DNA of 64,000 nucleotides from Novakomyces olei (Eukaryota). Where the stretch lies: the NCBI GenBank assembly GCA_016906335.1, contig JADEYG010000007.1, forward strand, positions 1,798,001 to 1,862,000. The letters run 5' to 3'. The position numbers and the translations under genes were made by a program. Shown one piece after another: positions 35,245 through 56,496 of this stretch. The notes under the pieces were generated by a model, which saw only the letters and a list, made by a program, of their open reading frames with translations, was not told where the DNA came from and made no database searches. The stretch's first letter is position 1. Each line of letters starts with the position of its first letter.

Positions 35245-36818
35245 CTACTCCAATCTTTTCCTCTTTTTCGGTTGCTCTTGAGACATTGTGTGTTCATCTA
35301 TGATGATATCAGGCTGTAAATATTTATTCTCCCCTTTGAGAATATGCTGAGGCGTCGATTGAGAGCCCCTGACAAATTTGGCCACAAAAAATCCAATGGT
35401 CCCGGCTGCACCTGGCTCGCATCTGATACAGCCTCCAGCATTATCTTTGTCCTTAAAGTATTCGTCTAATCCGCGATTTGGCCAGAAGGGAAGCATGCTT
35501 TGCTGGCCAGCTAAAGTCCATCCTCCTTGTATGGCAACTTCAGACTCAAGTACAGCTTCAACGACAATCTCATTTTCAATTGCATGAATAGAGCAAGTTG
35601 AATACGTTATAACTTGAGCTTTAGGGAATTTCATTGCATGTTCAACAATGCGTCTTTGGAAATTTGATAGTGCAGTTAGGCGTTCGGTTTGACTAGCTTC
35701 CATCTTCTCCCTCGTACCAGTCTCCTCTAATAAAAAGTCGAGCCTATTAATTATTCCAGACCCAGAACAGCTTGGATCTAGAAGAATATGACTCGCTTGA
35801 TATATTTTATCGGAATCATTCGCTTTATCGGGATTTATTTGCAAAAAATCCATGTTTCGTACGTTGACTCTAGCGCCAGCTTTATTCAGCATTTGCTTGA
35901 GCATTTCACATCTTTTCGCGTCCCTCTCTACAGCGAAAATTAATCCAATTGAGCGTTTATTTTTCCTATATTGAAGGTCAGCCAAAAGACTAGTTTTATT
36001 TCCTGGCGCAGCACAGGCATCGATGACAATAGCGTCATCTGGAGGATCTAGTATCAAGGCAGGTAGCATACTAGCCTTATCCTGTATTATTAGGCGACCT
36101 TCAAGATAGTCAACATTTGTCGAAAGATCGTGTTTTCCGTCTATTGCAAATACAAATTCCAAAGAGGGGTCTTTGTATATCTTTCCTGGACCTAATTCTT
36201 CGAGAGATTTCACCCACTTGAGCTTTCCAAGCCTTTCAAGAACCTGATCCGGTTCTGATCTTAAACTATTGATTCGTATCCATCTTGCAATCTTTATGTC
36301 TAGGAAGTCAGCAATGGGTAATCAACAGATTTTGAACACACACCTGATTCGACTTTGGCTAAGTCGCGTATGTCTGATACCTTCTGACGCACCATGATTC
36401 TTTTCAGTTCCGCAGAAAGTCTTACTCTGTGCTTAAGTATTATTTTTTCAAGCCTATTGGGGTTCGTAGGGAAGTTCTGACGGCGTATGAAAAGATCGTA
36501 GACCAGCACCAATGCAACATTTTCGCTGAGCTAAACGAATAGTTAGAAAACCGACGGTTTACTTATGGTCGTCGTACTGTCTTTTCAAGTTTAAGAAGCT
36601 GAGAAATTTTGAGCATTTTAATTAACACATTACGATCTGTTTTAATCATTGTTAGCATGATTCCAGAGGTAGTATGATTTACATTTTAACACTTCGCAAA
36701 CAAATCCGAACGTTCGCTTGGGATTTTTGACATTTTTTGAGAAACAAAGAGACTTTACAGATCCTTTCTTTTGTTCGAGCTTTGTTAAAACATCGGCCAC
36801 TTCCTTGAAAAACTCCAT
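35245..36818 (-). CDS. RCM1: 25S rRNA m5C methyltransferase Rcm1/NSUN5-like (NOL1/NOP2/Sun), about 3 introns
   Basis: IIQDKAS, IDACAAPGNKTS, LLDPSCSGSG, TYSTCSIHAIENE, GFFVAKF; N-terminal KGSVKSL, LVYDL, RWIRIN. Confidence 0.85.
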
Positions 36819-37004
36819 TGAGCCAATCTGAATTACAGACACAAACTCATGAGCCTGAGTGTTTTGAGCAACTCAACTTCAATGTCGGCCGGCCCCTAAA
36901 CGATAATAATTGCCAATAAATTTTGAGTTATGTTGTATTCATGTGTTGAATTATTGGAGTTATTTTGAAGTTCGAATGGTTTATCTAATAATTTATTGTA
37001 AAGT

Positions 37005-38690
37005 AATGTAGGTATAATAATGTATGTGTGAATTATGTATGGTGTTAATATATGGTATTTATGTATGGGGATTAATGTTTGGGGGAATAATAGCTATTAT
37101 TACTAGCGACATTTCAACGAAATGTCAGCTGGTATTATTTTTTTTGTATAATAATTGCATTGTCTAAAATCGAGAAAACCCTAGATATATTCAAGACGGA
37201 ATTATGGCGAAATTCCTTTATATGTAATGTGATTTTATTATGTATAAATCTAGTCAGGGTTTTCGCTTTTCCTTTACGCCATAATTCCGTTTTGAAAAAT
37301 AATTAATGTGGTCATGCCAATTTCCTTCGCATTCCCGCGAATTATGGCGTAATTCTAATTAGAATTGTAGGAAAAACGTGGAGGCAGGGTTTTTTAGGAA
37401 GAATTTTTACGGCTTAATTCCAAAATAATATGGGAATAATATATTAATTTAATTAAATATTAAACAATTAACAAATATTATAAATGCTACAGAACTATAA
37501 GCTATTATAACTTATTGTCAATTTGTCTTGAAAGTTATTATTGATGAATAAATTAATGTTATTATACTTAAAAATGTTAATAAATTATTATAATGGTAAT
37601 AAATTTATTAAAAATTCTAATACTCCATATATTGCAACTTTTAATACTAATGCTCTATTATTTATTGAATAATAAATATATATCCATAATCGCGCCTTTA
37701 GGCCTTCGGGAACCTTTATATTCTTTTCCACAGTATAATATACACGACCCATAAAATACATCCTGGGGCATCATGAGCTTTTTATAAATCTTTAAACCCA
37801 TATATCTCCATAAATACTAATCCAATCTTGTAACCAAATATAAATTTACACTCCTACTGCTCCCCTCTATCCAACCATATACATTTTGTAAAAACACTTT
37901 TCATTCGACGTTTTGTCACCTCTACACATGGACTACACACTCTTAATTTTTCTTATTTTTCTGACGTTTTTCTTATTATACTCTATTACTATGTTGCTTT
38001 CTAATATTTATATTATATTATCAGACAACTATAATATGTGTAGCCCAGCTTGTATAATAATTATATTTATAAATTCAACAACTACCCTTGCAGACAATAT
38101 TGTTTGCCAATTTTTTGGAATTAAGTCGTAAAATATTTTTTCTCTAACTTCGTTCTTACCCCCGTTTATGCCAATTTCCTTAGCATTCCCGCGCAATTTC
38201 CCATATTATATTTTGGAATTTAGCCGTAAAAATTCTTCCTAAAAAACCCTGCCTCCACGTTTTTCCTACAATTCTAATTAGAATTACGCCATAATTCGCG
38301 GGAATGCGAAGGAATTGGCATGACCCCATTAATTATTTTTCAAAACGGAATTATGGCGTAAAGGAAAAGCGAAAACCCTGACTAGATTTATACATAATAA
38401 AAATCACATTACAAATAAATGGAATTTCGCCATAATTCCGTCTTGAATATATCTAGGGTTTTCTCGATTTTTAGACAATGCAATTATTATACGAAAAAAT
38501 AATACCAGCTGACATTTCGTCGAAATGTCGCTAGTAATAATAGCTATTATTCCCCCAAACATAATTCACACATACATTATTATACATACATTATTCTTCC
38601 ATACATTATTCCTCCATACATTATTCCTCCATACATTATTCTACCATGCATTATTCCTCCATACATTATTCCTCCACACATTATTAACCA
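37005..38690. mobile_element. Foldback / long inverted-repeat element: arms 37075-37436 and 38198-38562, about 760 bp spacer, outer 14-15 bp tandem arrays
   Basis: The arms are near-perfect reverse complements. The tandem unit TTATTCCTCCATACA lies on the right and degenerate reverse copies on the left. The structure is certain, its classification is not. Confidence 0.7.
38591..38680 (+). repeat. 15-bp minisatellite TTATTCCTCCATACA x6
   Basis: Directly visible, with more degenerate copies from about 38546. Confidence 0.92.
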
Positions 38691-38949
38691 ATACAAGTAT
38701 GCAAACGAAAGGCTACTCACTAAATTTAGTCACTGAATGGATGAAGTGATGTTCAGTCAGAATCTGGCTGTTCCGAAAAAAGCACTTAAAGCTTTAGCCG
38801 TTACTTATATTTCATTCTTCATTCTTCATCTATCCATTCAAGCATTCAAAAAATTTAAATTAATATTGTATTTGCGTATATTTGTAATATTTTATACTGT
38901 ATAGTGCTTTTCAGATGACTCGCAGTAATTAAGACAATAATGTCTGTAC

Positions 38950-39800
38950 CATTAAAATTCGAAGTTTCGTTTATTTGGCGCTAAATTTTCCACCTGGTGA
39001 TAATATAAAAAGTTACTCAAAAAATTTGATATTTGGTCCAGTCAGATTTGCGAAAAAAAAGCGAAGACCCGATTTATTGTCTCTAATTTTCAGTTCATAT
39101 TTTTTTTCATATAGAGAGAGAATGTCTGCATTCATTCATGAGTCGTCCAATGGATTGGATATATTTGCCCATCTTCAATGGAATTGAATCGTCATTGTTT
39201 GCGAAACTTTAAAATTTTCTTCTGCAAGTTTTAATCAACTTCAATCCCCAAAAACATTTGTGATTTTGTCTTAAGTTTGACTTCAAAATACCTTTGATTA
39301 TAATATTGAAATCGTTTTGAAATTCCCTTAATTCGTTCGGTAACTGATGAAATGACCGACATTGATTATAACAGAAATGCCACCTTATGTACGAATTGTC
39401 TGGCCTATCGTAAATTTCTTCAAATTTAAATTTTCTAGAAATTTTCGAGGCCATCTGCAGTGCTCAGAATGTTTCTCTACTTTTTCAACGAGACTATAAA
39501 TACATATAGTACGCTTTTTCTAGGGTTCTGTGAAGAAATGCCGTATTTAATTCGAGTTGATAAATTCATAATCCATTTTTTAAAGCGGCAGTGTGACAAC
39601 CTTATTGTTTCATTTGAGGTGCCCCTTGCGCACCATTCAATACGTTCAAATCTATGCTTTTTGCTTGAAGAAGCCTTTTACGACTAGTGTCTCTTTGAAT
39701 CAGACGACATTTTGCTTTTCACCTTATATATGCTTAAATCTCTTTTTGCGTCTTTCAATGTAAACGATAGCCAAAATGTTATCTGCGCTTTTCACTCTAT
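38950..39800 (-). pseudogene. Decayed Ty1/copia reverse transcriptase fragment
   Basis: Minus strand FKETLVVKGF (like FKARLVAKGF) and YQLELNTAFLHRTLE (like QLDVKTAFL), with many stops and frameshifts. Confidence 0.65.
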
Positions 39801-40471
39801 CATCAAACGTTTTGTAGGGCATTTTCCTTTTCAAGCATACTTCACAATTATTATCAATTCTTTTGCTTGATTTGACAGACGAGCTAAATATACTTTTTCC
39901 TCTTAAATTTCCTTAATTTTCAAGAGACAGGAGTTGTGTGTTGCCCAATTTATTTTTTTTTTCTATTCTTGACTCCCTTCGAGACATTCCCAAGCCAATC
40001 TGATGAATACATCTAAGCCATAGTGGGTGAAGCGTCTATAAATAGAGTAGTCGATCAGCGAATTAATTAAAAATATTAGCAATATTAACAATAATAAATT
40101 GCTCACCAAATAAACAATTACAGTAAATGCCCAAGTTTTCTGTGCCATGAAAGTCTTTCGTTTTTGTATTTGCCATTATCTTATTATATATAAAATCCAG
40201 ATAAAAAATTTAGCACGAAATTAAATTGTCAGGAATTACTAAGGCTTTATCGCTTAATATTACAGAACCGATTTCTTTATCGCAAAATATCTCCGTGCTT
40301 TAATATGTTTTTGATTGACGTAAAATCTACCAGTATATTTGGCTGTGCATACGTCCAGTTACTAATCGTCTGATGCTTTATATTTACCTCGATCTCAAAC
40401 ACAAATGTATCGCTTGTTTTTGCATGTAGTTTCTTTTTAACATTCATTTCTATTAATTATGTTATTAATTA

Positions 40472-43400
40472 TGCTGAAATTATTGATGTAAGTATTGTTT
40501 AATAGGTTGTTCGTACGGTTAATATTAATTATCTTACTTCAGTAAAAGACAGTGAAATTCCCCAAGGTCAAAGGGATTCATCCATGGATATGTATATTCA
40601 TATCCAGAACGTAGGTAAGCAAATACGGGGTAAAGACAGATCGTAATAGTTTCAATTTTGGCTAAAGGAATGAGAGTATTTAGAAAAGTAAATTTATAAG
40701 TTGACAGAGTCCATATTTCAACACTCGTCAAGACTCTTAAAACTTATAAAATCAATATCGATTTTATAATTAAATAAATAATAGAATTCACGAGCCATAA
40801 AATAAAGTTGAATAAATTTCGTAAACTTGTTTCTGATTAAATTTTTCGTTAATCCGTCTTCTCTCATCTTTTCTGTAGGACATCTTTGTAATTTGACTAG
40901 TTATTTTTTAATGTAATCCATCACATAGTAGTTTGTATTACTTAGATTTTTAGAGCCTTGATAGTTTCCTCCTGTACCTTCTAGAAGTATACACGCATTG
41001 TTGTCGCAGTTAATAATTGGTATTTAATTTTCCATATTATTGATCTCTTGTAATAGTTATTTGAAATAGAGCACTTAATTGATTGTTATCTTGAGCGCTT
41101 CAAATTCAGCCATCATAAAACTTGGTGTGACTATTTTTTGCTTTCTTGAGTTCCATGCGATCGGTCTATTGTTGTTGCCTATTGAACAAACATATCCTGA
41201 TCCTGACTTGCGGTCAGTAGTGTCTCCTGCAAAGAAAGAGTCAGCTCACGCAAGTATTTCGGTTTAAGGTAATCGATAACATGATATATTAATTTCGATT
41301 GTTGAACTCAAATATCTTTTTGTATGGTTCAATGCCAGTAGGTGCTCTTCGTCTTGAAACTTTGTATTTTTACTGAGCATACTTACTGCATATCGCAAAT
41401 CTAGTCTTGTCCATTCTGTAAGATAAATTAATTTTCCGACTATTGTAGCGTATATTTCCAAGCTATTATTTTTGTCATCCGCGGGATGATATAACGCTTT
41501 AATGTTTGCGATCGGATGCGATAATGGTCGAAGATTCGAGTCGGTAAAAGTTTGAACAATAGATTTAGCGTAAGACGCCTGAGATAGTTGTAGAACTCCC
41601 AGCTCTTGATCGTATGTAATATCCGTTCCTAAATATTTTTTTATTTTTCCTAAAGATTTAATGGAATAATGAGATTTGAGATATCGCTCAAACTCATCTC
41701 TTTCTCCATAAACTTTTTCAATTATTAAAAGATCATCCTCATATATTGCAAGAATAATTTTGTCATTAAAATATACTGCGTTGTCTTTCTTTGAATTTTT
41801 GAGGTTGTATTTAATCAAAGTAGAATGAAGTTCATTGTTCTATGATCTTGGTGATTGTTTAAGACCATATAGACTTTTTTCTAACTTGCAAACTTGATTT
41901 TTATTATCTTTTATGCCTTCAAGTAATTTCATGTATACAGTTTCTTTCAATTTTTTTCGTCAGGGAATGCTGTATCCACATAGACATGAAAAATATTGTA
42001 ATTATTTATAACACTTAGTAGGAATTGATGCGTAAGTTTCCTCGTAGTCCTGGTGGAAAATTTGGGTATATCCTTGGGCGTCTAATCTAGCTTTGTAGAT
42101 TGTCTCATTCGTAGCAATTTTGCATTTCATTTTGAAAACCCAGCATTATCCCACTACATGCTGATTGTCAGATTTTGTAATTTTTTCCATACATTATTTC
42201 TGTTCATTGCCTCAAGTTCTTTACTAAGTGCTTTTTTCCACTCAGAACTGTATGGACCGTTGACAGCTTCATAGTAGCTTTGTGGTTCCATAGGTAGATC
42301 TGTAACATTGTTCGCTTGTTCATCCGGTTTTGTGCTTATTTTGAGGTAATCGTCTCCTTCCAATAAAGGCGATAGCACTTTTCTCAGTTTTTCATTGGAT
42401 ACACCTGGGGACTTTAATTTTCTTTTTCCAGATAATATCTCGGTCAATTCATTGTTATCCCTTTTTTCATCTGCCATGTCAATATGATCAATATCAGTGG
42501 TTTTGTCTTCTTCACTAATATTTTGGATATTTTCAGCCATATCGTCCGCACCATCTAATGATAAGGCCCCAGTTCCAACATTCATTTCATTATTTGTAAT
42601 ATCAGATTTAATTTCATCTGATGTCTTTTCTTGTGCAGTAGATTCAGCATTGTCTGAGTTATCTGTAGATGTGTCCGCTGTATAATAATTCGATAATTTG
42701 TCGCCTTTATTCAAATAATTTCGTATTTGAGACTCATTTGTAGGGGAACTGGTAGTTTCATTTAAATTGTTATTTAAATAACGTTCTAAAAAATTGATAT
42801 CGTAGTTGTTGAGTGAACTACTGCAGGAGGTTTGTTTAAGAAAAATGACATCTCTTGATACAATACGTTTCGCACTTTTCAATTCAGACAAAATATAACC
42901 CTTTTGAGTTTCAGAATATCCTAGGAATATATATTCTTTCTCTCTCTGTTCCAACTTAGAATTTTCTTCTGTTTGCTTATTTTTTCCAATTGCTAAACGT
43001 CCAAAAATCTTTAAATTATACAAGTTCAGTGCTTTTCCATATAACATTTCGAACGGAGTTTTTGGACTCGATTTAGTTGCAATCTGTTTTTAAGATAGCA
43101 CTTGTTAAAATAGCGTCTGTTCAGAACCGTAATGGAACGTTTTTATTTAATAATTTAGCTCTTGCTTTTGACGTTATTGTCCATATGCCTCGCTCTGCCA
43201 CTCTATTTTGTACCAAATTGTTGGGGTCTGATGTATTATTCTAATTTTTTTTGTTAGCATTGATATTTCTGAATTTAAAAATTCAAGCCTATTGTCTTTT
43301 CCAAATATTTTTATTCTTTTTCCAAATTGAGTTTTAATAAATGGAAGAAATTCTGAAAACAGGTTTGGTACTTCACTTTTATCTTTCATAAGATAGAGAA

Positions 43401-45421
43401 ACGTATAATCAGATTAGTCTTCTGTAAATGTAACAAAATATTTGTAATTTGATTCGGACTGAATATTAATAGCGCCGCAAACATCACTATGAACTAGATC
43501 AAATAATTGTGTTGGCCTAGTTCTACCATCTGTGGGGAATGGTGTCCTTGTAATGTTTGAGAGCTTGCACGTAGAGCACGCTTCGGTCTCATTAGTACGT
43601 AAATTTTGTAATTTTCCCACTGCTTTTCCGTTTTTCAATTCAATCGTATATTGCTTACTTGCATGGCCAAGACGTTCATGCCATGTTTCGTAAGAATTTT
43701 GTAAAATGGAATTAACTTGTTGAACATTCTCTTTTTGTATAGATATCGTATTAAACGAGTATATGTTATTCTCCTCGTTCAGACGTATAAGCGGTTTGTC
43801 ATTACTCATCATAACTTTATCTCTGTCAGATATCGAGAACGTTTTTTCTCCATTAAATTCTTTTAATAACAAGTTTATTCCATATTTTGGAGTGTACAGG
43901 ACATTTGATAAAATTTATTTATTATTGTAAACGTCATTAATCTTTAAATATCGTTCCAACTCTTTCAATTGGAGAGAACGTTATTTTTTCCTGTCTGAAT
44001 TTTTGTCTCAACCCTTGTAAAAACATTTTAAATCAAAGCAAATGTGACTAGAAGCGCTTGTATCTAAAATCCATTGTGTAGATTTTTTAGGTACATTCTT
44101 ATATAGTCACAAGATAGGCTCATTTTTATTAGTCGTAATACTATAAACTGTGTGAGATTTGCTTTTTTAGTCTCGTTTCTTTTTCGACAATCTTTTTCGG
44201 TATGTCCATACCTTTTCACAGTTTTGACAGTGTTTTGTATAGGAAAGTATATCAAGCTTGTGCAGCAGCTGATTACTTAGTAAAAAATGAAATTTTACCC
44301 TGGTAATTGTGACTGTCATTGAGAAGACTATAAATAGATCTAGATAGAACTATGTTGGCTAACGAAATTGAATACAACACGTTTCAAATTAACACGTTCG
44401 AAATTATAGATTCAACATTTTGTTCCTTTCCCTTTAGGATTTTTGAAACAATCATTAGCCCTGAGTCCAATTCGTCCACAAAAAGAGCATTTGGGTGTGG
44501 GGTTGACCGATTCCCTATTTGGGAGTAATTTAGCAGTAATTTTAGAGCTAACATTGCGGCGAACGTTCTCCGCAATTTCTTTTGGTAATGCCAATAAAAT
44601 CCCACAGTACGTAAAATACGTGAGCTCCGTAAATCCTAGACGAACGAGACTGATCACGATGTTTCTGTAACCGTTCATAAACTTTTCAGGGTCTCCTCCC
44701 CACAATTTTTGAGGAGCCATGAACTTAGTGGCCACAGCTTCAATCTTTTGATTTACATTTTTGCCAAATTCCAAATCGAGTAATTTAAAGAGCGCTTTTG
44801 GCGATTTTATTCCTTCAATGCGGAAAGTAAGTAGATTTTCGTTTATCGCCTCGATTAGCTTGGCTGTGATTACGAGAACGGTGACTTTCGGGATATTGGA
44901 GTGTTGTTCGCTCTCCAATAATGCGGAGAACCCATGCAGTTCCAATCTGTTTGTAATTTTCAACTTCCATTCACTATACTCGTGCCACGATTTCAACATT
45001 GGAATTATTCCAAGTATTATTGTATTCTTTCTCAAACTATTGGCGAGTCCGGGGGTGACGTCTGGTTGAGCCATGTTTTTGATTTTTAATAATTTTTATT
45101 ATTAAGAAACTTAACTCCACTTCTAATCACTGAGTAGATGTAATATTTAACCTTCCAGGCTCATAACCTGTTGAAATTATTGATGTAAATATTGCGAGAT
45201 AGATTGTCCAAACGGTTAATATTAATAATTTTGCTACAGTAAAAGACAGTGAAACTCCCCCAAGGTCAAAGGGATTCATCCATGGATATGTATATTCATA
45301 TCCAGAACGTAGGTAAGCAAATACGGGGTAAAGACAGATCGTAATAGTTTCAATTTTGGCTAAAGGAATGAGAGTATTTAGAAAAGTAAATTTATAAGTC
45401 GACAGAGTCCATATTTCAACA
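40472..45421 (-). mobile_element. Full-length but frameshifted Ty1/copia LTR retrotransposon with Ty5-type priming; LTRs 40472-40723 and 45169-45421, TSD AATTA
   Basis: TG..CA LTRs; AATTA at 40467-40471 and 45422-45426; PBS GGTTATGAGCC at 45168-45158; gag knuckle, DTSASSHIC protease, WHERLGH and HSDVCG integrase, YEDDLLI RT, RNase H in copia order. Confidence 0.93.
44238..44417 (+). mobile_element. Solo LTR family A copy 1, nested in copia gag, TSD TTTTG
   Basis: TATAGG...TTCAACA, near identical to the copies at 46422 and 51994; TTTTG on both sides. Confidence 0.88.
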
Positions 45422-46017
45422 AATTATTTCGTATCGCGCTATCTCAAAAAAACTGTTTTAATATAAAAAATTAAATCCCGGGTTTAATAAAATATTTTTT
45501 ACCCATCGCCATTTTCATCTCAATTCATTCGCATGATCCATTTAAGTTTTATTTTTCTATTTAATCATCTAAATACAAAACAAAGTTTGGTTTGATGCTT
45601 AAGATACGCAATCATTTACGTTTGCTATGAACGTCTGATTTTTGATTAATTTTTTATGATTGTAGAAATAAATGGGGCTAGTTTTTATATAAGCAGAGTC
45701 AAATCTTTTATTGAATTAAGATAATCTAAAGGGCAAGGTAATATGTTTATGTAATGAGTACTTGAGCAGGATTGCGCGACTTTCTAAGCACCTTGAGAAA
45801 ATTAAAAAACTTGAAGTTAAACTTGTTTTATGTGTCCGATGTAAATTCCATATACATCCTCAGTGGTACCAACACAAAGCTTTAATATTACATTCGAGAG
45901 TGTTTAAATAGTATCATAGCTAGTTTTGTGTAACGAAGGTGTATTTCTTGATTGATATCAGTAACATAACTCAATTTGTCGCTATATTTCAACTGCTTTA
46001 TAATTTTTCCTCATTTT

Positions 46018-46202
46018 TATAGCGAGGTAAATCAAGCTTGTGAAGCGGTTAATTTCTGATAAAAGTACAGTTCTAACTTGAGGCATGGGATCTGTTAAAT
46101 CGCAGACTAAATAGAGTTAGATAGGCCCAATACAAATAACGAAAATTGCACACAACATTTATTCAAATTAACTTGTTCAACAAGATTCTGCAATTTTCAA
46201 CA
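46018..46202 (+). mobile_element. Old diverged relative of solo LTR family A
   Basis: TATAG..TCAAGCTTGTG..TAAATAGA..TAGATAG..TTCAAATTAAC..TTCAACA, colinear with family A. Confidence 0.6.
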
Positions 46203-46421
46203 ATTGCCAATCTTATTAGGGTTATGTAATAAGTAAACTTCTGAGCCTTGTTCCACAAATCCTAACGCCTATTTCTTTTTTTTTTATAAACGCCCAATGT
46301 ATGAGCAATGGCTCAAAACAAACTAATATACTCTGCTTCGCAATTCGATAAAGTGGCAAGCTTTTAATTTTTAGGCACCCCGTAAATTTATGATGCCATG
46401 CAAAACTTCTTTCCAATTTAT

Positions 46422-46602
46422 TGTTGAATCTATAATTTCGAACGTGTTAATTTGAAACGTGTTGTATTCAATTTCGTTTGCCAACATAGTTCTATCTAGA
46501 TCTATTTATAGTCTTCTCAATGACAGTCACAATTACCAGGGTAAACTTCATTTTTTTTTCTAAGTAATCAGCTGCTGCACAAGCTTGATATACTTTCCTA
46601 TA
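46422..46602 (-). mobile_element. Solo LTR family A copy 2, TSD TTTAT
   Basis: Reverse complement of copy 1; TTTAT at 46417-46421 and 46603-46607. Confidence 0.88.
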
Positions 46603-49600
46603 TTTATCACATGCATAATCGGCACCGCAACAAACGAAAACTGCTGCTGTGATTGCATTACTCTTTATGCTTCTTGTATCGCGCAAATACATTGTAATGT
46701 ATTTAAACTTCTCGGCATTCATTAGTTAGCTTTATCGGACATCTTATCTGGCCTTGAGCATCTACGTATCCAAAGTGTCGAAACTTCTAATTGGCTTGTT
46801 TAAAGAACCGATGTTAAATTTATTTAGCGCTTAATTTAATTGAGACTAACGCTGAACTATATATATACCTAAATTCCTGTCACTGAGTCACTTGTTCGTG
46901 TGCAAGGCTTTTGTGCTCAATTCTCGTTATTTCAGTCATTTCTCCCTTTTTTTTTTGAAATCCAATCATCTTGATTTTTCTTCGTGATGCCCAAGCTTGA
47001 TATATTCCTATTCAAATTAGAATCCAGACCATTCGCGATATACTCCCCGGTCAATAGGCTTCCCATCAATTTCGGCATCCTTTTTAATTGGTATTCCTTT
47101 TTTAGCCAAACATTAGCAATTAAATTGTTTGATAAATATATTATTACTGCATGCACGTAATACATTTTGAGCTGTCATTGTTTTGACTTTAATTTAATTT
47201 GGCTCCCAAAAGTCAATGGTTTGTCCAGGTTTCTAGACTTTATTTAAAGTTCTTGAATTACATAAAGTATTGCTAGTTTGTTCAATTCATACTTTTCCTA
47301 CATCAATCGAGCTTGGGGAGATCCAGCAAAATCTTATAATACTTATTATGAGGGTTGTCTTACAAATTTTTAAAGCGTGTTCAGTATCGCTAAGCGGCCT
47401 TTTGTATCTACAATAAATCGAAAATTATATTGTGAAACTTATTCACAAAAAGCGGCCTGTGCTCATCAAAAGCATAGCGCCATTTTTTCATTTTTACTCC
47501 AAGCCAAGAGCGGCGTTCTCATGGAGACGCAAATGATTTAAAAAGTCGAGCGAAATACTTTCGTCAAAAAACCGGATATGAAGTAACATATCAAATAATC
47601 AATACTCTTAAAACAAAAGCGATACAGTATTGACGAATGAGCAAAATACTTTAACGAGAAAACTATAACGACAGAAAAACAGAACACAAGCATTTATGAA
47701 AAACGATTGAGCATGTCAATAGCAAATAAGTTTAATCAGAAGTCAACAGAAGCTCGAATAATCGTGTATTATTTAGAAAATAAATTTAATGTATAATGCA
47801 TTTAACTGAACGCTAACATTACTATTTTAGGAATCCGTTCGCTCAATTAAAGATTTGTCAAGTAATGTGTGACTTGTGTTTGTCTTTAGACCAACGACTA
47901 GGAAGCCCAAAATACAAGGCAACTAAAAAGTCCATCTAATATCAGCTAGATAGTCTGGTTGGCCTTTAAACCCATGATGGGATAAAAGATCCTACAAAAG
48001 GACAGAAAAACCGCATTCTATATAATTGACATTTCGCGCGAAAAAAATTTATTATTGCCTTTTTCCTCTTCTGTTAGTTATCTAATTTTCTTCTGCTCGA
48101 CTCTTTCGCTACAGATTATCGACGTGAGATGTTACAGAAAAGTCCTGTTAATTGTTTGTTTAATGGCTTTTATGTAATAATTTACACTACAGCTATTTTT
48201 TGTTTTGGCATGTATTAATTTGGACGGGTTACGCTATAGTTTCAGTGGTCTGCAAGACGCCACTTGCGTCAATAAACCCAAAAAAAAAAAAATAAAAATA
48301 AAAGAAAATAATCACTTGAATAGGGGCAAAATTCAAATTGGATCTAAATAAATAAACCTAAAGCAGAAAATAAAGTCGGTGTCAGAAGGCAAATAAAGAA
48401 ACCTTTGATGAGCTTTTTCGCCACAAAGAAAATATAAATGTAAGGAACAAAGGCCTTCGCAAAGTAATTAAAATCTAATAAGAGACAAGAACAATCAGAG
48501 GTCAGTGACAATATTGTTATGCCAATCTAATAACCGTGTTAAAAAACAATAACAATAGAGTCTAAAAATAAAATGAAATCTATGAAAACGTCAAATAATA
48601 AGGTCAAATTAATTGCACATGAATTTGTTTAACGATTTATTTGCCGCGCCATACAAGAATGCCATTATGATCGATTGTGTTCGTGCCGGTCTTATGTCTG
48701 ACGCTATTTGTGGTAGTGCTTATGCCCCTGCTGAAGTAAATAAATTTGCCATACTACACAAAAAATTGACGTACTTTCTTAAATCCTTTCTTAGTCCTTA
48801 CGAATTCCATGGACCCACTTGAGCAGAACATATAATTACTTTTAGTGGATGACTATCATAAAATGTGTTATGGGTGTTTTTTGGAAACTAAAAGGTCGTC
48901 CACTGTTGCAATCAAAAGCTTCATCAATTTTGAAAAGCTCAGAAAAGTACAGTTATTTCGTTCAGGTAATGGCAGATAATTTAAAAATAAAATTCTGAAT
49001 CAATTATTAAATTAAAATTAAACACTACACTTAAAAAAGATTCCATATACTCCCAAACAAAACGGAATTGCTGAACTAAAAAAGAGGACAATAATAGAAG
49101 GGCCAAATGCAAGTCTGTTGCTTGAAGGGAGGCAGTCAGATATCTTTTAGAAAAGAATGGTAATGCATACAGCTTATGTTTAGAAGTAATATCCTCCTCC
49201 TATCTAAGTGTCTGAAAATCAATTTTATATGACTAAAGATGAAAAAGGTTTTGGTGACCTGGCGACAAGTTAAACAATGCACGGATTGCGACAAAGAACA
49301 ATAAGCTTTTTTTATACGGGTCATCAGCAAATCAAAAAGGACGTCAGTTTTGCAGTTTTGAGATAAACAACTTATCGTATCAAATAACTATTGTTTTGTA
49401 AAAAACGAACAAAAGCATTGTATTAAGGATGATCATCGAAACGAGATATCGAATAACCAAATTTCCGAAATAATAAGTTAAACAATGTCAATTAGTCGAG
49501 ACGAAAACAGAATATTAACGAATAACTCGAAATGACTTGCGCATGAAATACAAGTGTTCGTATATTTGAAAAAGTGTCAGATGACTCTGAGACAGGTGTT

Positions 49601-50013
49601 CTGTCAAGATAGTTTTCCGAAAAAAGACAAAGCATAATACAGCTAAAGGCCATGCATTTTGAAACTCCTGATGGGCCGGCTAGCTATAACGAACCACATA
49701 GCGAGAACGATAAGAACTTTTTGTACCACGCGATTGATGACGAGCTAAGAAGCATGTAGAAACCTAAAGCGTGGGGAATTGTAAAATTACCTACAAATTA
49801 TAAGCCCTTTGGACGCAAATGGGTGTTCAAAATCAAAAGAGACGAGAACAATGAGGAAATAGAATATACGGTCAGATTAGTCGCTCAGGGCCTTTTGTTA
49901 CGTTTTTTGGACGCCTAGTTCCTAATATAATTTTTGTCGGTACAGTAGAAACGAAAAGGAAAAAGATATAAACAGAGTACTGAGAAATATGACACTGCTA
50001 CGAGTGTGAGTGC

Positions 50014-51197
50014 ATATAATATCTTTAATATGACATCTTTAATATAATATCTTTAATCTTTAATCTTTAATATAATATAATATGTATATATAATATAATA
50101 TGTATATATAATATATCTAATATCTAATATCTAATATATATAAAATAATATATTATAATATAATGTTTAATAATATTTCAAATGATTAATAAATTAGTTA
50201 ATCAAAGTTTTTAATTAAAGTTTTTAATTAATTTATATTAAATTGGGTAATAGAAAGTTAATGAACATATAAATATTTATATTATAATATAATATATATA
50301 TTCTATATATATTTATAGCTATAAATTATAATATATGTATTATACATACTAAATTATATTTACAAGAGATTTAATTATATTTATAAAATATTAGATTTAT
50401 TTAATATTATATTTGATTTATATTTATATTTATATTTATATTTACTTTAAATAAAAAAAAATAATTAATTTTTTTTGCACCATAAATATAGTTAACATTT
50501 ATAATATTAGTCATTTGTTTAATATTTAATTAAATTAATATATTATATTTATACTAACTATAAATCAATAAGTTTATTATTAATTATAAACACACAATAA
50601 CCTTATATATATGATACTGATAATGATAATAATAATAATAATGATAGGTGTTTAAACAAACATATATTTATATTAAATAATAAGTATGGCATAAAAATAT
50701 ATATATATATATAATTAAACTTTGATATTGCAAAGAAAGTTTAATTATTGTATTATATAATAATTAAAAACATTACATTTTTAATACCAATTTTTAATAT
50801 TTTACATCTTAATTTATTAAATATAATTATAGATTTATTTATATAACATTTACTGGGATAACCATAGAGCTTTTTTTTTCCGTTTTATCTATAGACGAAT
50901 AGTTCATTTACACTTTCGTCTCCATATTTTATTTTATGTTGTATGACCAATATAGCATTTTTTATTGTTGTTTATTCTATTCTATTGAATTTCTTATATA
51001 TATTTATATTTTATATTATTATATTCTATATCTATATTTATAGCTAAATAAATAAAGAAAAAGAGAAGAGAAGATTAGAGAAGAGACACTTTAATTTTTA
51101 TATGCTTATTATAAAACATCTTATAAATAAATATTATAACAATAATTAATTAATAATAATAATGAATTTTTATAACAAAATCAATTTTAAATGACAA
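50014..51197. other. Extremely AT-rich 1.18 kb insert flanked by the 15-bp direct repeat TACGAGTGTGAGTGC; possible NUMT
   Basis: Repeat at 49999-50013 and 51198-51212; roughly 90% AT by eye, with sharp boundaries and simple repeats. Confidence 0.7.
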
Positions 51198-51993
51198 TAC
51201 GAGTGTGAGTGCCTCCACAAAACAAACTTATGAAAATGCTTCTAAAACCAAAATCCAGCAAATCACTGGAGAATACATGTGTCGCTGAAGCAAGATTATA
51301 GGAATATGTCAAGCTTGGACGCCACAGAAAGAGAACAGGAAGGCTGGCTACAGAAAAGATGAGGAAAGGCTGGAATAGCTGGAAATTAATTGCCATATTT
51401 GCTGAAATAGAACTAGAGAATCAATAAAATTTGCATACTATTCAGCTCTAAAAAATTATTTCTGGTTCTTTTTGAACGTAAATATAATATTTTATAATTA
51501 GGGGACATATGGAGACCGTTAACAGCGAATTTAAAGCATGCATTTATACAGAGACTTCAAGAAAGTGCACCAACTTCTTGTAATGAGAAAAGATTACAAT
51601 ATAGAAACACGGGTCTTTGAAATTGACTATTGCAAAACAATATCAAAAATTACCAAATATTTTGGTTATCAAATTTAACAAAAAACATATTTGATTTCAA
51701 CATTTATCAAATTAAATGAAAAAATAATTGAACAATCAAACAGAAGAAGATGTAGAAAATTTTTGTTAAGAATAAGCAGGCATTTTTTATTTACGAGAAA
51801 CTTATGCGGAAAGGTATCAACAAATTCTGCCACTGAATGTTTGGAATTCCTACAACAAATCCTACATAGTTTCAATTTAAAAAAAAAGGGCTAGTTTTAA
51901 ATATCAAGTGGAAATTAGTATGACTTTTGACCAAAAGACTCTGATACTGACTACGCTAGCTACAGATTTGAAAGACACTTTACATCTGAAATG

Positions 51994-52171
51994 TATAGGG
52001 TATATCAAGCTTGTGCAGCAGCTGATTACTTAGAAAAAAAAATGAAGTTTACCCTGGTAATTGTGACTGTCATTGAGAAGACTATAAATAGATCTAGATA
52101 GAACTATGTTGGCCAACGAAATTGAATACAACACGTTTCAAATTAACACGTTCGAAATTATAGATTCAACA
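51994..52171 (+). mobile_element. Solo LTR family A copy 3, inserted in the RNase H remnant, TSD AAATG
   Basis: AAATG at 51989-51993 and 52172-52176; near identical to the other copies. Confidence 0.88.
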
Positions 52172-53949
52172 AAATGGAATCTTTTTGGAAAATTAAATTA
52201 TACTCTTAGCTTTTCAAGCCAAACCTTATTCCCCTTATCTGTATGCAAAGCAGAATATGCACGTGCATGTTCAGCAGCTATTATCAAATTGACAATACCA
52301 ATTTAACTACAAAAATGCTAGATCCAGATCGCTCAATTTGGTTTTGTTTTGTCAAAAGCAAGCATTCCAATGTATCATGTTTCTATAAAATCTGGGTGAA
52401 GAACGGGTTATTTTTACGGATTTGCAAAAAATGCTGATGTCTAAATAAAGCAATTTCGCAAAAAGAGGTTGTTTATCAAAAAAAAAAACGTTTGTACGGA
52501 AGTTCCTAAGTTGAATATCGCGGGCTTGTGACCGATTGTCGGAATTGTTTCAAACTTTAAAATTTCCAATGATTTTTTCTGTTTGGATAATATACCTTGT
52601 GCAACATTACATAGCGGAGAAACAACTCCCCAAGACTCATTAAAGCTTAAGCGAGAAGCTAGTTAAACAATGTCACCGAGGCAGAAACGATCGGTTAAAA
52701 CAAATACGACAGTTAGATAAAACGCTGACAGATAGCACAGATGACTATACCGTTAAATGCTTTACTAAAAGTATGTAGAGACAAAATTATACAATTAATA
52801 TAATTTTGTTATCATAAAATAGCCTCTGTCCTGAAATTATCATTGTATTATCGATCTATTTATTTCAATCTATTATATCAATATCGATGTCTACATTATT
52901 AAAAAAATGCAGTGAGACTTCGAAAAGTTTTAGTGTTCTTTACAGTCAAAGAAGTTGAACTATTTATTTGTAATCCAAATGTCTGCAGTAGTTAATTGTT
53001 TCGGGTGCAAAAACACATTTTTGCAGATCAAAATAACCCTCAAATTCTAAATAAACATTTTGAACAATTTTTGAGCACTTTTCTCCGAGTGATATGTGAT
53101 TTTGACCTATGTTTATTTAAAGCTTTGATTTGCGTGAACCTGGCCTGAAACTAATTAAATTTAAATCACAATTTATTTTCAGATTGAACTTCCTAAAATA
53201 ATGGTATTAAACCAGCAAGAATACAAAGAAAAAAACGGTCGGTCCACATATTTATTCACATTATTTGTTTTAGCATTAATCAATTTCATTTTAGCAATAG
53301 CGGCTTACAACAACTTACTGGCGAAACTATAAAGATAAAGAATGTGTCAAGCTTGGACGTGACAAAAACAAAGCAAGATGACTGGATACTAAGAAAAGAT
53401 GGAGAATGGTTGGAATGACGGGTACCAAAAGCAAGAGGCTTGCACCATCAAACTGTGTCTCAGTGGCTATTATTAAAACAAAAACTAGTACAGCATTGGT
53501 ACAATTACAAAAGAAGCTAATAGAAATACAGCATTGATCTTTTCAAACAAGCCAATTCGAAATTTCTAAAAAACCAATCTAAAATGCAGCTAACTCAAAC
53601 GAAACGACTATCTTCATTGGAGAAATATTTTTCTTTATAAACAATTAGTTTAGCCTTATTTCGACATCCTTGGAGTCTCTATACCATCAAATGATATAAA
53701 AGCTCTGTTTCTACTAATACATATTTCAAATTATAGCAAATATATAGTCAAGACACACATGTATTCCTCAAAAGCCAATATGTCACTTATCTGCATGTAA
53801 ACTTCAATATTGCTTCAGCATGTGTTAGCATTATTCATAATGGAAGTGATTCCAATCAGAACGCAGTATCAAGGCATATCATAAGCAGACTCAACATAAT
53901 CAAATTATATAGCTTTCCGTTAAAATTTGGTATATTAGCATATAACTGG

Positions 53950-55150
53950 TATAGTCAAACTAAAACTATTGGTTCAAATATGCATCATCTATAGCCTTAA
54001 ATGAAATAAATTCAACAAGATTAATTTTTCAAGCCCCAATAGTTCATTTTAAAACACTATTTAGTCTCGTATCTTGACATTTAAAAGAAAATTTCTTTGG
54101 TCAAATTTGAGACTCACCTCTAGAAATAATAGAAAGATAATTTCTATTGGAATCATTTATGTCTAATTTGCGCACACATTGAGAAGACAACCTTTGCATT
54201 TTAAAACTGATGAGTCCTAACGTCATACTTTATTTACAAAGAGCCCCACTATTATGCTCATTTAAAGCTAAATATCTTTATTTGTAATTGATTCCGGCCT
54301 AATTAATGACTTGTTCACTCGTTACTAAAAACATTCATCATGATACTACGCCCAGCATTCGAAAAATCACAAGTATTAGGACATTCACGTACCTTTGAAT
54401 TATAGCAATTTTTGTGGAAAAAATTTAACGGCCAACCATAACGTTTGTTGTATTCTTTGTATGCTCATAAACCAAAACTCTATGATTATCCGTTAAGGTA
54501 ATCTACGATTATAAGACATACCATGATTGGTATTTTGTATACTGGCAGCTTACTTATTAAACAGTTTCGCATTCAGCTCTATTAGCGAAACATACAAATA
54601 CCTCATACAGTAAATAACAATTAGAATTAATTGTTTGCATTAAATGGATCTTCCTCTTTATGGGAAATTTCCTGCAGGATTTTTCATAATTAATATCGAT
54701 AGAAACCTCAACTTTGGAACGAGAGTTTGCATTTGATTTAATTTATTGTATCACTTGGGGGATAATTTCCAATAATTCAATATTTTCATTAATGGTCATT
54801 ATTACTTTACTATAAATACACATAGATCTATAAATATAATACTGACGAATCCCGTATTTTTATTCTGCATGAATTTGAATCCCTGAAACATAAATCAGAT
54901 TGTGATTGAAATGTTCTAATAACCTCGTCTAAATTTGCAATGATAGTTTATTGTACTCTAACGTGTTTTCTTTTTTTCCGTTGTTTTCTTCAAACGATAT
55001 AATGTCAGCCATAATCGGCCAATGTGATTTTCCAAATATAATTAAACATATCGCGTCCATGAGCAAAAATAGATAATCTATCTACCACACGAGAATAATG
55101 GTACACTGTACGGGCTTCTTGATAAGTATTATATTAATTTTATGATGTGA
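53950..55150 (-). pseudogene. Probable heavily decayed non-LTR retrotransposon (LINE endonuclease end plus RT start)
   Basis: Frameshifted motifs in LINE order: R-IDYLF (~55075), SHWPIMADI (~55015), DPFNANN (~54645), TDN (~54490), QGC-like (~54190). Confidence 0.45.
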
Positions 55151-56496
55151 CTGGCCAGAAACTGTTTTAGTTTGTCGTAGACTTTTTCACATTGTATAGT
55201 ATTATACAAAAATTTTTGACTTTGAATTACCAATATAATTAATTATAATATGGTTGATAGATACAAAATAAGAATGCTTTCCGAAATAGTTACAGAAGAA
55301 CCGTAGCAGAAACTTCTTAGATGAATAGTATAGCATTTGGTGATCAAATATATCATATCGATAAATCAAATTGGCACAGACCAATTCAATTATCTTCACC
55401 AATTATCTTCTGAGTCATCTAAATCAAGAAAGAAAATATGAATTTAATTTTTTTGAATCCTGAAACTATATTTTGGATGAGAGTGACTAGTCTCTGATGA
55501 TATCGGTTGCAACTGAACTTAAGTGAGCACAAACATAAGAATGAAACAATTTATAAACAAAGACGGACCAGCTAGGGCGTTCTTACACTTAATTCATTCA
55601 TCCACAGCTTAGAATTGAAAGCACTAAACCATATCTATTTAATTTTACGGCCACAATTTTACAAGAGTTTTTTCTTGCTTCACTTATTTAGAAACGATAT
55701 CAACACCGTAACCTACTCATAACATGTGATGTAACACTTTCCAACTGTCAGGGTTGCGCAAAGTCCTTTGGTACGTTAGCCATAATTGAATTTGTATCTC
55801 AAATTCACAATTATCTCGAGAAATTATAAACGAATACGTCAAAATTATCATCGTGAGGCAAAACGTACGATTGGCCAATATGAGCAATCAGCTTATTTTA
55901 AGCTTAATTTCAATGTGAGCTACTGCTTAAAAATATCTTGAAAGTAGACCAGAGAAATATTGAAATTTTAAATTGGAATTGATGCATTACGATTAGAACC
56001 ACTTTATAATATAAATCAACCAAAGCTACTAACCTAAAAATATAGCATAAATGCAATGCCTTGGTTTCACATACAATATGAAATCCATTTCATTCAATCA
56101 AGACGCTAAATATTCTATTGAAAAAATACTCGGGATTTTGTAACGTAATTTTTGTTGTATGGGTTCATGATTATGATTGTGTACCTTGTCAGCTTTTCTC
56201 TTCATGTTTTCGTCACGGCATTTCAAGCATAATCTCTGTTACTTCATAATTTTAATATGTTTTCTTTTAATAATCCAAAAAGAACGACTATCTGTGTAAT
56301 TCAGATCGACTCAGAGAGAAAGCTTACGGCCTCTTGCGCTTGCAGCGTTCGTAGCTATGATTTTAATTAAATTTAGGGTATATATGGTTCATACGCCGTG
56401 CCAATCAACAACACTGGTGCTCTTCAGACTGGAGATAGCGGTTGAAAATGAAAACGTGAGCATGCGCCAATAAATTGATTGGTAAATCAAAAAATA

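Follow-up and report, generated by a model that had tools for sequence, protein, structure and literature searches.

A segment of 19.5 kb (positions 36900-56400, hereafter the block) in the window, that is, in the whole 64-kb stretch of DNA analysed, raises the question of whether an AT-rich domain populated by transposon remnants and placed between housekeeping genes is the centromere of its chromosome. The sequence-only reading had proposed a centromere or a heterochromatin island.

The GC content of the block is 0.309 versus 0.424 and 0.428 in the left and right flanks, and the AT-rich character claimed for it extends over its whole length: GC values of 0.131-0.367 were obtained in 19 out of 19 one-kb bins from 37001 to 56000, and values of 0.367 or lower in 3 out of 45 flank bins. 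Outside ORFs of at least 100 aa, the GC is 0.303 in the block versus 0.377 and 0.393 in the flanks. Those ORFs cover 13.8% of the block versus 61.6% of the left flank and 54.0% of the right one, in agreement with the drop in gene density described earlier. Relative to the surrounding sequence, the block is a GC-poor and gene-free trough, as expected of a regional centromere. The trough anticipated for GC is thus present, and that of GC3 is weak (0.36-0.37 in the exons nearest to the block; mostly 0.41-0.50 in exons farther away).

The Pfam scan of the block covered 144 of the 181 stop-to-stop ORFs of at least 40 aa, the 37 left out belonging to other frames of element A, to the AT island and to a 15 bp array. 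Only copia domains (RVT_2, SH3_retrovirus and gag_pre-integrs) reached or came near the cut-offs, five other matches were sub-threshold noise, and no host gene was found among the 144 ORFs, as had been claimed. The statement that the flanks lack transposable elements also held: the 13 non-self BLASTN pairs of at least 50 nt detected across the 64-kb window all fall within 36987-53566, the copia HMM yielded outside the block only E values of at least 1.7 with negative bit scores, and no transposon domain was present in the 22 long flank ORFs scanned. ARAGORN found no tRNA gene, and Rfam no match, 5S genes included, in the 64 kb; a cluster targeted to Pol III genes was rejected as an explanation on this account. 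The features of the block and its neighbouring genes are listed here by position; about 48% of the block is unclassified sequence.

33897-35108, plus strand: KARI/ILV5, left flank gene
35245-36872, minus strand: NSUN5/RCM1, left flank gene
36987..38685, unstranded: inverted-repeat (foldback-like) element, from BLASTN arms and tandem repeats
38686..40471, unstranded: AT-rich filler, unclassified; no Pfam match, marginal copia-like signal inside
40472-45421, minus strand: element A, complete but dead Ty5-like Ty1/copia LTR retrotransposon, from LTRs, duplication, primer-binding site and HMM
44238-44417, plus strand: solo LTR c1, family 2, nested in element A; duplication TTTTG
46018-46192, plus strand: solo LTR c4, family 2, old copy; duplication ATTTT, nhmmer E 2.6e-41
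46422-46602, minus strand: solo LTR c2, family 2; duplication TTTAT (plus-strand reading)
46780-47007, minus strand: old LTR relic, family 3; 68% over 231 nt to 53340-53566
47008..48835, unstranded: A-rich (plus strand) unclassified stretch; no Pfam match
48836-49897, plus strand: element B, truncated dead copia relic, from HMM, tblastn and RVT_2
50000..51212, unstranded: AT island with bracketing repeats, from composition and self-match
51302-51376, plus strand: LTR relic fragment, family 3; 78% over 77 nt to 53340-53416
51994-52171, plus strand: solo LTR c3, family 2; duplication AAATG
53340-53566, plus strand: old LTR relic, family 3, from BLASTN and alignment to the other family 3 copies
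53567..56400, unstranded: AT-rich filler, unclassified; GC 0.27-0.35, no repeat, no ORF above 85 aa, no Pfam match; stops about 100 bp from the aldehyde dehydrogenase stop codon
56497-57105, minus strand: last exon of Aldedh (aldehyde dehydrogenase), right flank gene

Concerning the host, a tree of the single gene ILV5 placed the window as sister to S. pombe plus S. japonicus (support 97/96), and the RCM1 introns are short (about 50 nt); both fit the 'probably basal ascomycete' proposed before. The Atlas search gave a placement at phylum level only, Ascomycota. A 924 aa kelch protein had no match at E ≤ 1e-20 among 8000 candidates, and none of the 204 pattern matches to an RCM1 exon in metagenome contigs was confirmed.

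The LTRs of element A (40472-40723 and 45169-45421) are 93.7% identical, have the tips TGCTG/TGTTG...CAACA, and are accompanied on both sides by the 5 bp target-site duplication AATTA. On the minus strand, Pfam located gag_pre-integrs at 43414-43914, SH3_retrovirus at 42154-43089 and RVT_2 at 41264-41839, so that the order is gag, IN, RT, with the integrase before the reverse transcriptase as in copia-type elements. A copia HMM, run locally on the six-frame translation with X at stops, matched profile positions 252-864 and then 868-1336, with E values of 2e-87 and 1.5e-83, across no fewer than 18 in-frame stops and a single frameshift (frames -2 and -1). Among 14 matches of the copia ORF, in the 'longer' length class only, the best one was 49% identical over 24% of the query. 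In tblastn searches with pieces of the element A ORF, nothing appeared outside the element except matches to nested and solo LTRs.

Immediately after the 5′ LTR of element A, at 45158-45168, i.e. at the position of a primer-binding site, lies GGTTATGAGCC, which occurs as a single exact copy in the window. Read as its reverse complement, it gives a CAU-anticodon loop flanked by G-C pairs, and it may match tRNA-iMet, the host tRNA-iMet being absent from the window. A primer site formed by a tRNA-iMet half-molecule is described as diagnostic of, or unique to, Ty5 in passages of PMC12711049 and of the Haase 2025 preprint, and passages of the latter name the tips TGTTG/CAACA for Ty5 LTRs. By its tips, its 5 bp duplication and GGTTATGAGCC after the 5′ LTR, element A would be Ty5-like, the hallmarks being present. 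The 11-mer also sits in an oligonucleotide of one paper, with its target unstated there, which lends no support to the Ty5 reading.

Element B is reduced to the integrase core and the beginning of the reverse transcriptase, with in-frame stops; it was detected by the copia HMM (E 3e-16 and 2.8e-15) and by RVT_2 (37.3 bits at 49760-49915). The third of the 'three decayed copia elements' reported earlier is a marginal candidate on the minus strand at 39500-40438 (pieces 39500-39586 and 40124-40438, HMM E 0.24 and 0.033), so that two of the three are clear. The probable LINE relic did not find confirmation: Pfam detected no LINE-type domain (RVT_1, endonuclease) in the 144 block ORFs, a scan that a very decayed relic could escape, and what remains is a run of A preceded by AATAAA at about 48270-48311, where the tandem-repeat finder marked 48280-48311. 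The A-rich stretch 47008..48835 may be what had been given that name.

The four solo LTRs of one family were all recovered, and every one of them has a perfect target-site duplication of 5 bp. Copies c1-c3 are 95.5-98.3% identical to one another, which indicates that they are probably fairly recent integrations; c4 is about 66-68% identical to those three. The closest pair, c2 and c3 (98.3%), forms a 181 nt repeat in inverted orientation. The family 3 relic at 46780-47007 resembles family 2 at both tips, and the fragment at 51302-51376 may, by alignment, extend from about 51296 to about 51530. A 34 nt stretch of the family 2 LTR had no exact match in the metagenome contigs scanned.

The arms of the inverted repeat (36987-37436 versus 38655-38198; about 450 nt each, with a loop of about 760 nt) are 91.5% identical over 460 nt by BLASTN, with sub-blocks at 96-99%, and their outer ends carry 14-15 bp tandem repeats (37018-37084 and 38546-38685). 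The repeat is located at the outermost margin of the block, some 170 bp upstream of the RCM1 start codon, and it exists as the sequence-only reading stated; the centromeric likeness given to it there does not survive, because the arms are only about 0.45 kb long and the position is at the edge. From its sequence, it looks like a foldback-type element. The AT-rich island was also verified: it spans 50014-51198 (1185 bp, 87.4% A+T), has internal dyad symmetry with a self-inverted match at 50040-50409, lacks detected homology to the LTR families, and has the direct 14-mer ACGAGTGTGAGTGC on either side, at 50000-50013 and 51199-51212.

Taken together, these features mean that mobile elements of different ages inserted repeatedly and independently to form the block. 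At least eight insertions were counted; the pieces are the copia elements A and B, the four solo LTRs, the foldback-like inverted repeat, the 87% AT insert and three further, older LTR relics. The five perfect 5 bp duplications of element A and the solo LTRs are all different, and therefore correspond to five separate integrations, one of them (c1) nested within element A. The identities given above, 95.5-98.3% versus about 66-68% in family 2, 93.7% between the LTRs of element A and about 68% in family 3, represent very different ages, and the sink has therefore been long persistent. The coding parts of all these elements are dead. By rough arithmetic, eight random insertions would all fall in the block with a probability of about 0.49^8 = 0.003, taking as target the 34.5 kb that lie outside ORFs of at least 100 aa in the window, 16.8 kb of which are in the block; this overstates the case, since the insertions themselves make up part of the block.

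In S. cerevisiae, Ty5 is tethered to silent chromatin through the C-terminus of its integrase. We infer that the block is a targeted sink in gene-free chromatin which has long taken up Ty5-like elements: a special chromatin, heterochromatic or centromeric, would direct Ty5-like integrases into it, and insertions would be tolerated there. The block is, with a probability of about 0.5, a candidate for the small regional centromere of the chromosome or for its immediate pericentric domain. CENP-A would then sit somewhere within the block, most plausibly on a core formed by the AT island and its LTR-relic surroundings, at about 50-53.6 kb. To our knowledge, no Schizosaccharomyces centromere is as small as this block of 19.5 kb. 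Against a centromere speak this size, the lack, in the block, of tRNA or 5S genes and of a kb-scale inverted repeat around the core, the share of about 48% that is unclassified, and the fact that the ILV5 placement of the host comes from one gene.

A close parallel in anatomy is found in budding yeasts, where passages of PMC12711049 and of the Haase 2025 preprint describe, at centromeres mapped by Hi-C, single clusters of Ty5-like pseudogenes that occupy large intergenic regions; Cyberlindnera sargentensis is the example given in PMC12711049, and part of PMC2997560 also mentions GC-poor troughs that hold Ty5-like clusters. The block is likewise a large, GC-poor intergenic region of Ty5-like pseudogenes and LTRs with host genes directly adjoining, and it has 5 bp duplications, TGTTG/CAACA tips and a putative primer site of the iMet type. 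It differs in holding also a foldback-like inverted repeat and a 1.2 kb island of 87% AT, and in its host, which the ILV5 tree places outside the budding yeasts. The link between Ty5 and centromeres is on record for Saccharomycotina and not for the clade of this host, and Ty5-like elements may be centromere-associated rather than centromere-making, as argued in a passage of PMC12711049.

In the nearest named clade by the ILV5 tree, the centromeres of S. japonicus are rich in transposons, with heterochromatin on all classes of them and CENP-A on a subset (part of PMC6538654). A retrotransposon-rich makeup is common to those centromeres and the block. The S. japonicus elements, Tj1-10, are reportedly of the Ty3/gypsy type and in much larger arrays; those of the block are Ty1/copia (Ty5-like), in only 19.5 kb. 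With centromeres of the fission-yeast type (cnt/imr/otr) the block shares its AT richness and lack of genes, and some of those also hold retrotransposon remnants and solo LTRs. Unlike them, it has no core bracketed by long inverted imr repeats, only the 0.45 kb arms and the 181 nt c2/c3 pair, no tRNA or 5S boundary genes in the 64 kb, and no outer-repeat arrays.

In Komagataella phaffii and Candida tropicalis, the inverted-repeat arms of the centromeres are of kb scale. The inverted repeat of the block, although it also surrounds a short unique segment as those centromeric repeats do (passages of PMC5010909 and PMC4741521), differs in its arms of about 0.45 kb, its edge position about 170 bp from the RCM1 ATG and its terminal 14-15 bp tandem repeats. 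As to the centromere or heterochromatin island initially proposed, the anatomy agrees with the descriptions of Ty5-cluster and S. japonicus centromeres, and the inverted repeat is the part that is not centromere-like.

The main rival is an ordinary, non-centromeric transposon nest or heterochromatin island, one of several, with the kinetochore elsewhere. We consider it quite possible, though less likely than a centromere. A large intergenic region would act as a safe haven in which each insertion enlarges the neutral target for the next one, so that nesting and self-enlarging targets account for the clustering without a centromere; tRNA genes, a core-flanking inverted repeat and satellite are all absent from the block, and fission-yeast transposon remnants occur also at the mating-type locus and subtelomeres (part of PMC6538654). 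Against this rival, the rest of the window is compact (54-62% long ORFs) with no transposable element in 44 kb of flank, the insertions of very different ages point to a persistent sink, and known Ty5-like clusters in such genomes are one per chromosome and centromeric (part of PMC12711049).

It seems improbable that the block is a pericentric flank or a former, repositioned centromere, with the kinetochore site outside 36900-56400. It would suit this explanation that every element is dead and that roughly half of the block has decayed beyond recognition, and centromere relocation is reported for budding yeasts in parts of PMC12711049 and PMC7263194. Against this explanation stand the three fairly recent family 2 integrations and the housekeeping genes that adjoin the block within about 100-170 bp on both sides, so that no larger centromere adjoins it.

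Transposon remnants are reported at fission-yeast mating-type loci (part of PMC6538654), and a silent mating-type-like cassette region, the heterochromatin of which gathered such remnants, could be thought of by comparison with the mat loci of S. octosporus and S. cryophilus. This is very unlikely, as HMG, alpha-box and homeodomain are absent from the 144 block ORFs and the 22 long flank ORFs. Finally, an AT isochore generated by RIP, of the kind seen in Pezizomycotina, for which the low GC and the many stops of the transposon relics could be invoked, was rejected, since TpA/ApT is 0.87 in the block and 0.85 in element A (RIP: above about 0.89), (CpA+TpG)/(ApC+GpT) is 1.23 in the block, 1.15 in element A and 1.27-1.33 in the flanks (RIP: below about 1.03), and the LTR differences mix transitions and transversions (11 and 5, respectively, in element A; 2-5 versus 1-4 among c1-c3).

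Returning to the block as a candidate centromere, a bolder version of this reading would make it a functional centromere of the Ty5-cluster type in a Taphrinomycotina lineage beside the fission yeasts, with the AT island as the CENP-A core; we regard this version as doubtful. By analogy, and as part of that same doubtful version, the AT island might be a functional counterpart of the AT-rich, LTR-derived CDEII of Saccharomycodes. A CDEII is far shorter than 1185 bp. The centromeres of S. ludwigii are compact Ty5-LTR centromeres with an AT-rich CDEII (passages of the Haase 2025 preprint), and the block resembles them in having a very AT-rich segment among LTRs and LTR fragments (62-95% identity there) with full-length elements alongside; it differs in that its island is 1185 bp long, is bracketed by a 14 bp direct repeat and has no detected LTR homology.

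In the portions of the literature considered, centromere maps of Taphrinomycotina are those of the Schizosaccharomyces and Pneumocystis groups, none having been found outside them, and more species of Taphrinomycotina are needed, according to the authors of the Pneumocystis study, before the ancestral state can be inferred. As a candidate that is compact, sequenced in full and endowed with Ty5 hallmarks, in a lineage next to the fission yeasts, the block bears on the form of the centromere ancestral to the S. pombe type, and on whether the Ty5-centromere link, debated for budding yeasts, predates that subphylum; the Ty5-cluster type of centromere has so far been described only in budding yeasts. 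If the bolder version were true, the Ty5-centromere partnership would date from the Taphrinomycotina-Saccharomycotina split or before, and the block would offer an outgroup state from which to judge how the cnt/imr centromeres of S. pombe arose. If it is just one of many transposon nests, it is ordinary.

A minor observation concerns the loop of the inverted repeat, a segment of which (37436-37690) resembles part of the AT island, with 67% identity over 270 nt and 93% over 54 nt.

The block of 19.5 kb between RCM1 and the aldehyde dehydrogenase gene (window 36900-56400) had been described in the sequence-only reading as AT-rich and without host genes, which agreed with GC bins and open reading frame (ORF) cover, both showing sharp borders. 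The GC content was 0.131-0.367 in all 19 one-kb bins from 37001 to 56000, and values this low occurred in just 3 of the 45 bins in the flanks. At 300 bp resolution, the left border (36900) was a drop from 0.37-0.42 to 0.27, and the right border (56400) a rise from 0.34 to 0.45. The overall GC content of the block was 0.309, versus 0.424 in the left flank and 0.428 in the right one; outside long ORFs, the values were 0.303 versus 0.377 and 0.393, respectively. ORFs of at least 100 aa covered 61.6% of the left flank and 54.0% of the right flank, versus 13.8% of the block, where they were retrotransposon ORFs. The features of the block and its neighbour genes were the following.

Features of the block and neighbour genes (window coordinates, strand, description)
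33897-35108, plus: neighbour gene, ketol-acid reductoisomerase ILV5
35245-36872, minus: neighbour gene, NSUN5/RCM1 methyltransferase, at least three exons
36987-37436 and 38198-38655: inverted-repeat arms, 91.5% identity across 460 nt, including blocks at 96-99%
39500-40438, minus: possible third copia element, marginal (profile E 0.24 and 0.033)
40472-45421, minus: element A, complete LTR retrotransposon
44238-44417, plus: solo LTR, family 2 copy c1, target-site duplication TTTTG
46018-46192, plus: solo LTR, family 2 copy c4, target-site duplication ATTTT
46422-46602, minus: solo LTR, family 2 copy c2, target-site duplication TTTAT
46780-47007, minus: LTR relic of family 3
48836-49897, plus: element B, copia relic with integrase core and start of reverse transcriptase (RT) only, in-frame stops (profile E 3e-16 and 2.8e-15)
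50014-51198: AT island, 1185 bp, 87.4% A+T, internal dyad symmetry
51302-51376, plus: LTR relic of family 3
51994-52171, plus: solo LTR, family 2 copy c3, target-site duplication AAATG
53340-53566, plus: LTR relic of family 3
56497-57105, minus: neighbour gene, aldehyde dehydrogenase, last exon
38686-40471, 45422-46017, 47008-48835, 52172-53339 and 53567-56400: unclassified, about half of the block

Stop-to-stop ORFs of at least 40 aa overlapping the block numbered 181, of which 144 (29 + 115) were scanned against Pfam, the other 37 being other frames of element A, the AT island or a 15 bp tandem array. The only meaningful matches were to copia domains: RVT_2 (E 1.6e-15), SH3_retrovirus (9.4e-16), gag_pre-integrs (2.3e-07) and a weak RVT_2 (2.1e-06) on the minus strand, and RVT_2 (37.3 bits, 49760-49915) on the plus strand. 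Five more matches, to families unrelated to transposable elements, were well under cut-offs. Neither tRNA genes nor Rfam families at gathering score were found in the 64 kb window. Self-BLASTN of the whole window gave 13 non-self pairs of at least 50 nt, all of them within 36987-53566, and no repeat of that size touched the 44 kb of flank. A LINE relic proposed earlier was not confirmed, as it came down to a plus-strand AATAAA with an A-run behind it (about 48270-48311), an arrangement like that at the 3′ end of retroposed transcripts; the 0.9 kb upstream contained no recognisable ORF and no Pfam match.

Concerning copia elements, two of the three previously counted were clear (A and B) and the third was marginal. 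A profile built from 8 of 14 distant copia polyproteins aligned with element A at 42184-44229 (profile 252-864, E 1.5e-83) and 40805-42175 (profile 868-1336, E 2.2e-87). Since its integrase precedes RT, element A belongs to the Ty1/copia type. The element is dead, as 8 and 10 in-frame stops interrupt its two tblastn alignments, which lie in different frames, and one solo LTR is nested in it. Its LTRs, of 252 and 253 bp, are 93.7% identical (11 transitions and 5 transversions), with tips TGCTG/TGTTG...CAACA and the target-site duplication AATTA; TGTTG and CAACA are named as typical Ty5 tips in the available text of a preprint (Haase et al. 2025). On the minus strand, directly after the 5′ LTR, occurs GGTTATGAGCC, its sole exact copy in the window, the reverse complement of which has the form of a CAU anticodon loop between G-C pairs. 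A primer site for a tRNA-iMet half-molecule is regarded as diagnostic of, or unique to, Ty5 (PMC12711049; Haase et al. 2025). It is strongly suggested, though not proven, by the sequence that element A carries a primer site of the Ty5 kind. The divergence between its LTRs (40472-40723 and 45169-45421) is uneven, with 84% identity in the first 92 nt and 98% in the next 169 nt. Such a pattern suggests that an LTR underwent recombination or gene conversion, and not that both decayed in a clock-like manner, which makes the overall 93.7% a poor estimate of the age of the element.

The four solo LTRs of one family proposed from the sequence were indeed found, each with its own perfect 5 bp duplication. 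In the nhmmer search, this family 2, of about 180 bp, had four copies at E 2.6e-41 to 6.4e-57, and nothing else scored below E 0.6. Copies c1-c3 were mutually 95.5-98.3% identical, while c4 was 66-68% identical to them. Three older LTR relics, absent from the earlier account, form family 3; they are about 68-78% identical, and resemble family 2 at both tips.

The AT-rich island noted earlier was also recovered. An exact direct 14-mer, ACGAGTGTGAGTGC, occurs on both sides of it (50000-51212 overall), resembling the duplications of variable length that accompany non-LTR insertions, or repair-mediated capture. The island could be a nuclear copy of mitochondrial DNA. A+T-rich islands mark replication origins in S. 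pombe, and a role of this kind could also be considered here. Part of the island recurs inverted in the loop of the inverted repeat, with 93% identity over 54 nt and 67% over 270 nt.

The inverted repeat itself was present as claimed, but it lies at the very edge of the block, about 170 bp from the RCM1 ATG (at about 36818), and its build is that of a foldback-type mobile element, not that of a core bracketed by centromeric repeats. Its loop is about 760 nt long, and 14-15 bp tandem repeats occur at both outer ends. At the right end, a ATTATTCCTCCATAC-type 15 bp unit is repeated 9.4 times (38546-38685); at the left end all copies are degenerate, which leaves the two arms unequal and without a definable target-site duplication.

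The AT skew was negative at about 38.7-47.3 kb and positive at about 47.4-53.7 kb, signs that match the minus-strand element A on the left and the plus-strand element B on the right. By this pattern, the unclassified filler too would consist of old retroelement sequence in these orientations, diverging from about 47.3 kb.

Altogether, the block received at least eight independent insertions, clearly differing in age, besides the three older LTR relics; none was detectable in the 44 kb of compact flank. Under a random-insertion model, with 34.5 kb of the window outside long ORFs and 16.8 kb of this in the block, the chance of all eight falling in the block is about 0.003, a figure that favours clustering, since the block was itself enlarged by these insertions. 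Repeat-induced point mutation was ruled out as the cause of the low GC content, as the indices TpA/ApT and (CpA+TpG)/(ApC+GpT) were 0.87 and 1.23 for the block, and 0.85 and 1.15 for element A. The transposable element families are themselves AT-rich (GC3 of 0.26-0.30 in the pol ORFs of element A). From these observations, we infer that Ty5-like elements have in this block a preferred and persistent sink. Mechanistically, we favour that it would act as a long-lived integration sink targeted through chromatin.

By analogy with known systems, the centromere of the chromosome would be the single most likely identity of the block, with a probability of about 0.5; CENP-A would then be predicted at about 50-53.6 kb. 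The sequence-only reading, which proposed a candidate regional centromere, was largely right in the main features it described, the number of copia elements and the LINE relic apart. In every feature readable at a single locus, the block matches the centromeres with Ty5 clusters described for budding yeasts in two sources (PMC12711049; Haase et al. 2025), the latter reporting that the AT-rich CDEII segments of Saccharomycodes ludwigii are embedded among fragments of Ty5 LTRs that are 62-95% identical. It also resembles the style of S. japonicus centromeres, which, according to PMC6538654, are transposon-rich and carry heterochromatin on every class of retrotransposon, but CENP-A on two of the classes. 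On the other hand, the fission-yeast hallmarks (cnt core, imr inverted repeats and tRNA boundaries) were not found in the block, and a nest of transposable elements located away from the centromere is a tentative alternative that deserves consideration. Whether such elements create a centromere or are drawn to one is left undecided by the authors of PMC12711049. A pericentric region or a former centromere is improbable. Returning to the centromere reading, GC3 was 0.36-0.37 in the exons nearest the block (35245-36069 and 56497-57562) versus mostly 0.41-0.50 farther away, which, in this small sample, is weakly indicative of a GC3 trough like those reported near yeast centromeres. No centromere maps in Taphrinomycotina beyond Schizosaccharomyces and Pneumocystis were found in the literature searched, and the authors of the Pneumocystis study state that more need characterising.

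Regarding the placement of the organism, a 924 aa ORF with N-terminal Kelch repeats (29236-32010, minus strand) had no relatives at E≤1e-20 among 8000 word-sharing candidates, probably due to crowding by low-complexity words and not to true isolation. No near-identical ILV5 protein occurred in a collection of 5.8 billion proteins (best 81%), so the proteome of this genome seems absent from the public protein sets searched. Among ILV5 proteins, identity was highest with S. pombe (81%, with 88% of the query aligned), followed by Saitoella (77%) and S. japonicus (74%). RCM1 has introns of about 50 nt. In a single-gene ILV5 tree of 25 taxa, the window was sister to S. pombe plus S. japonicus, with support 97/96, and apart from budding yeasts and Pezizomycotina.
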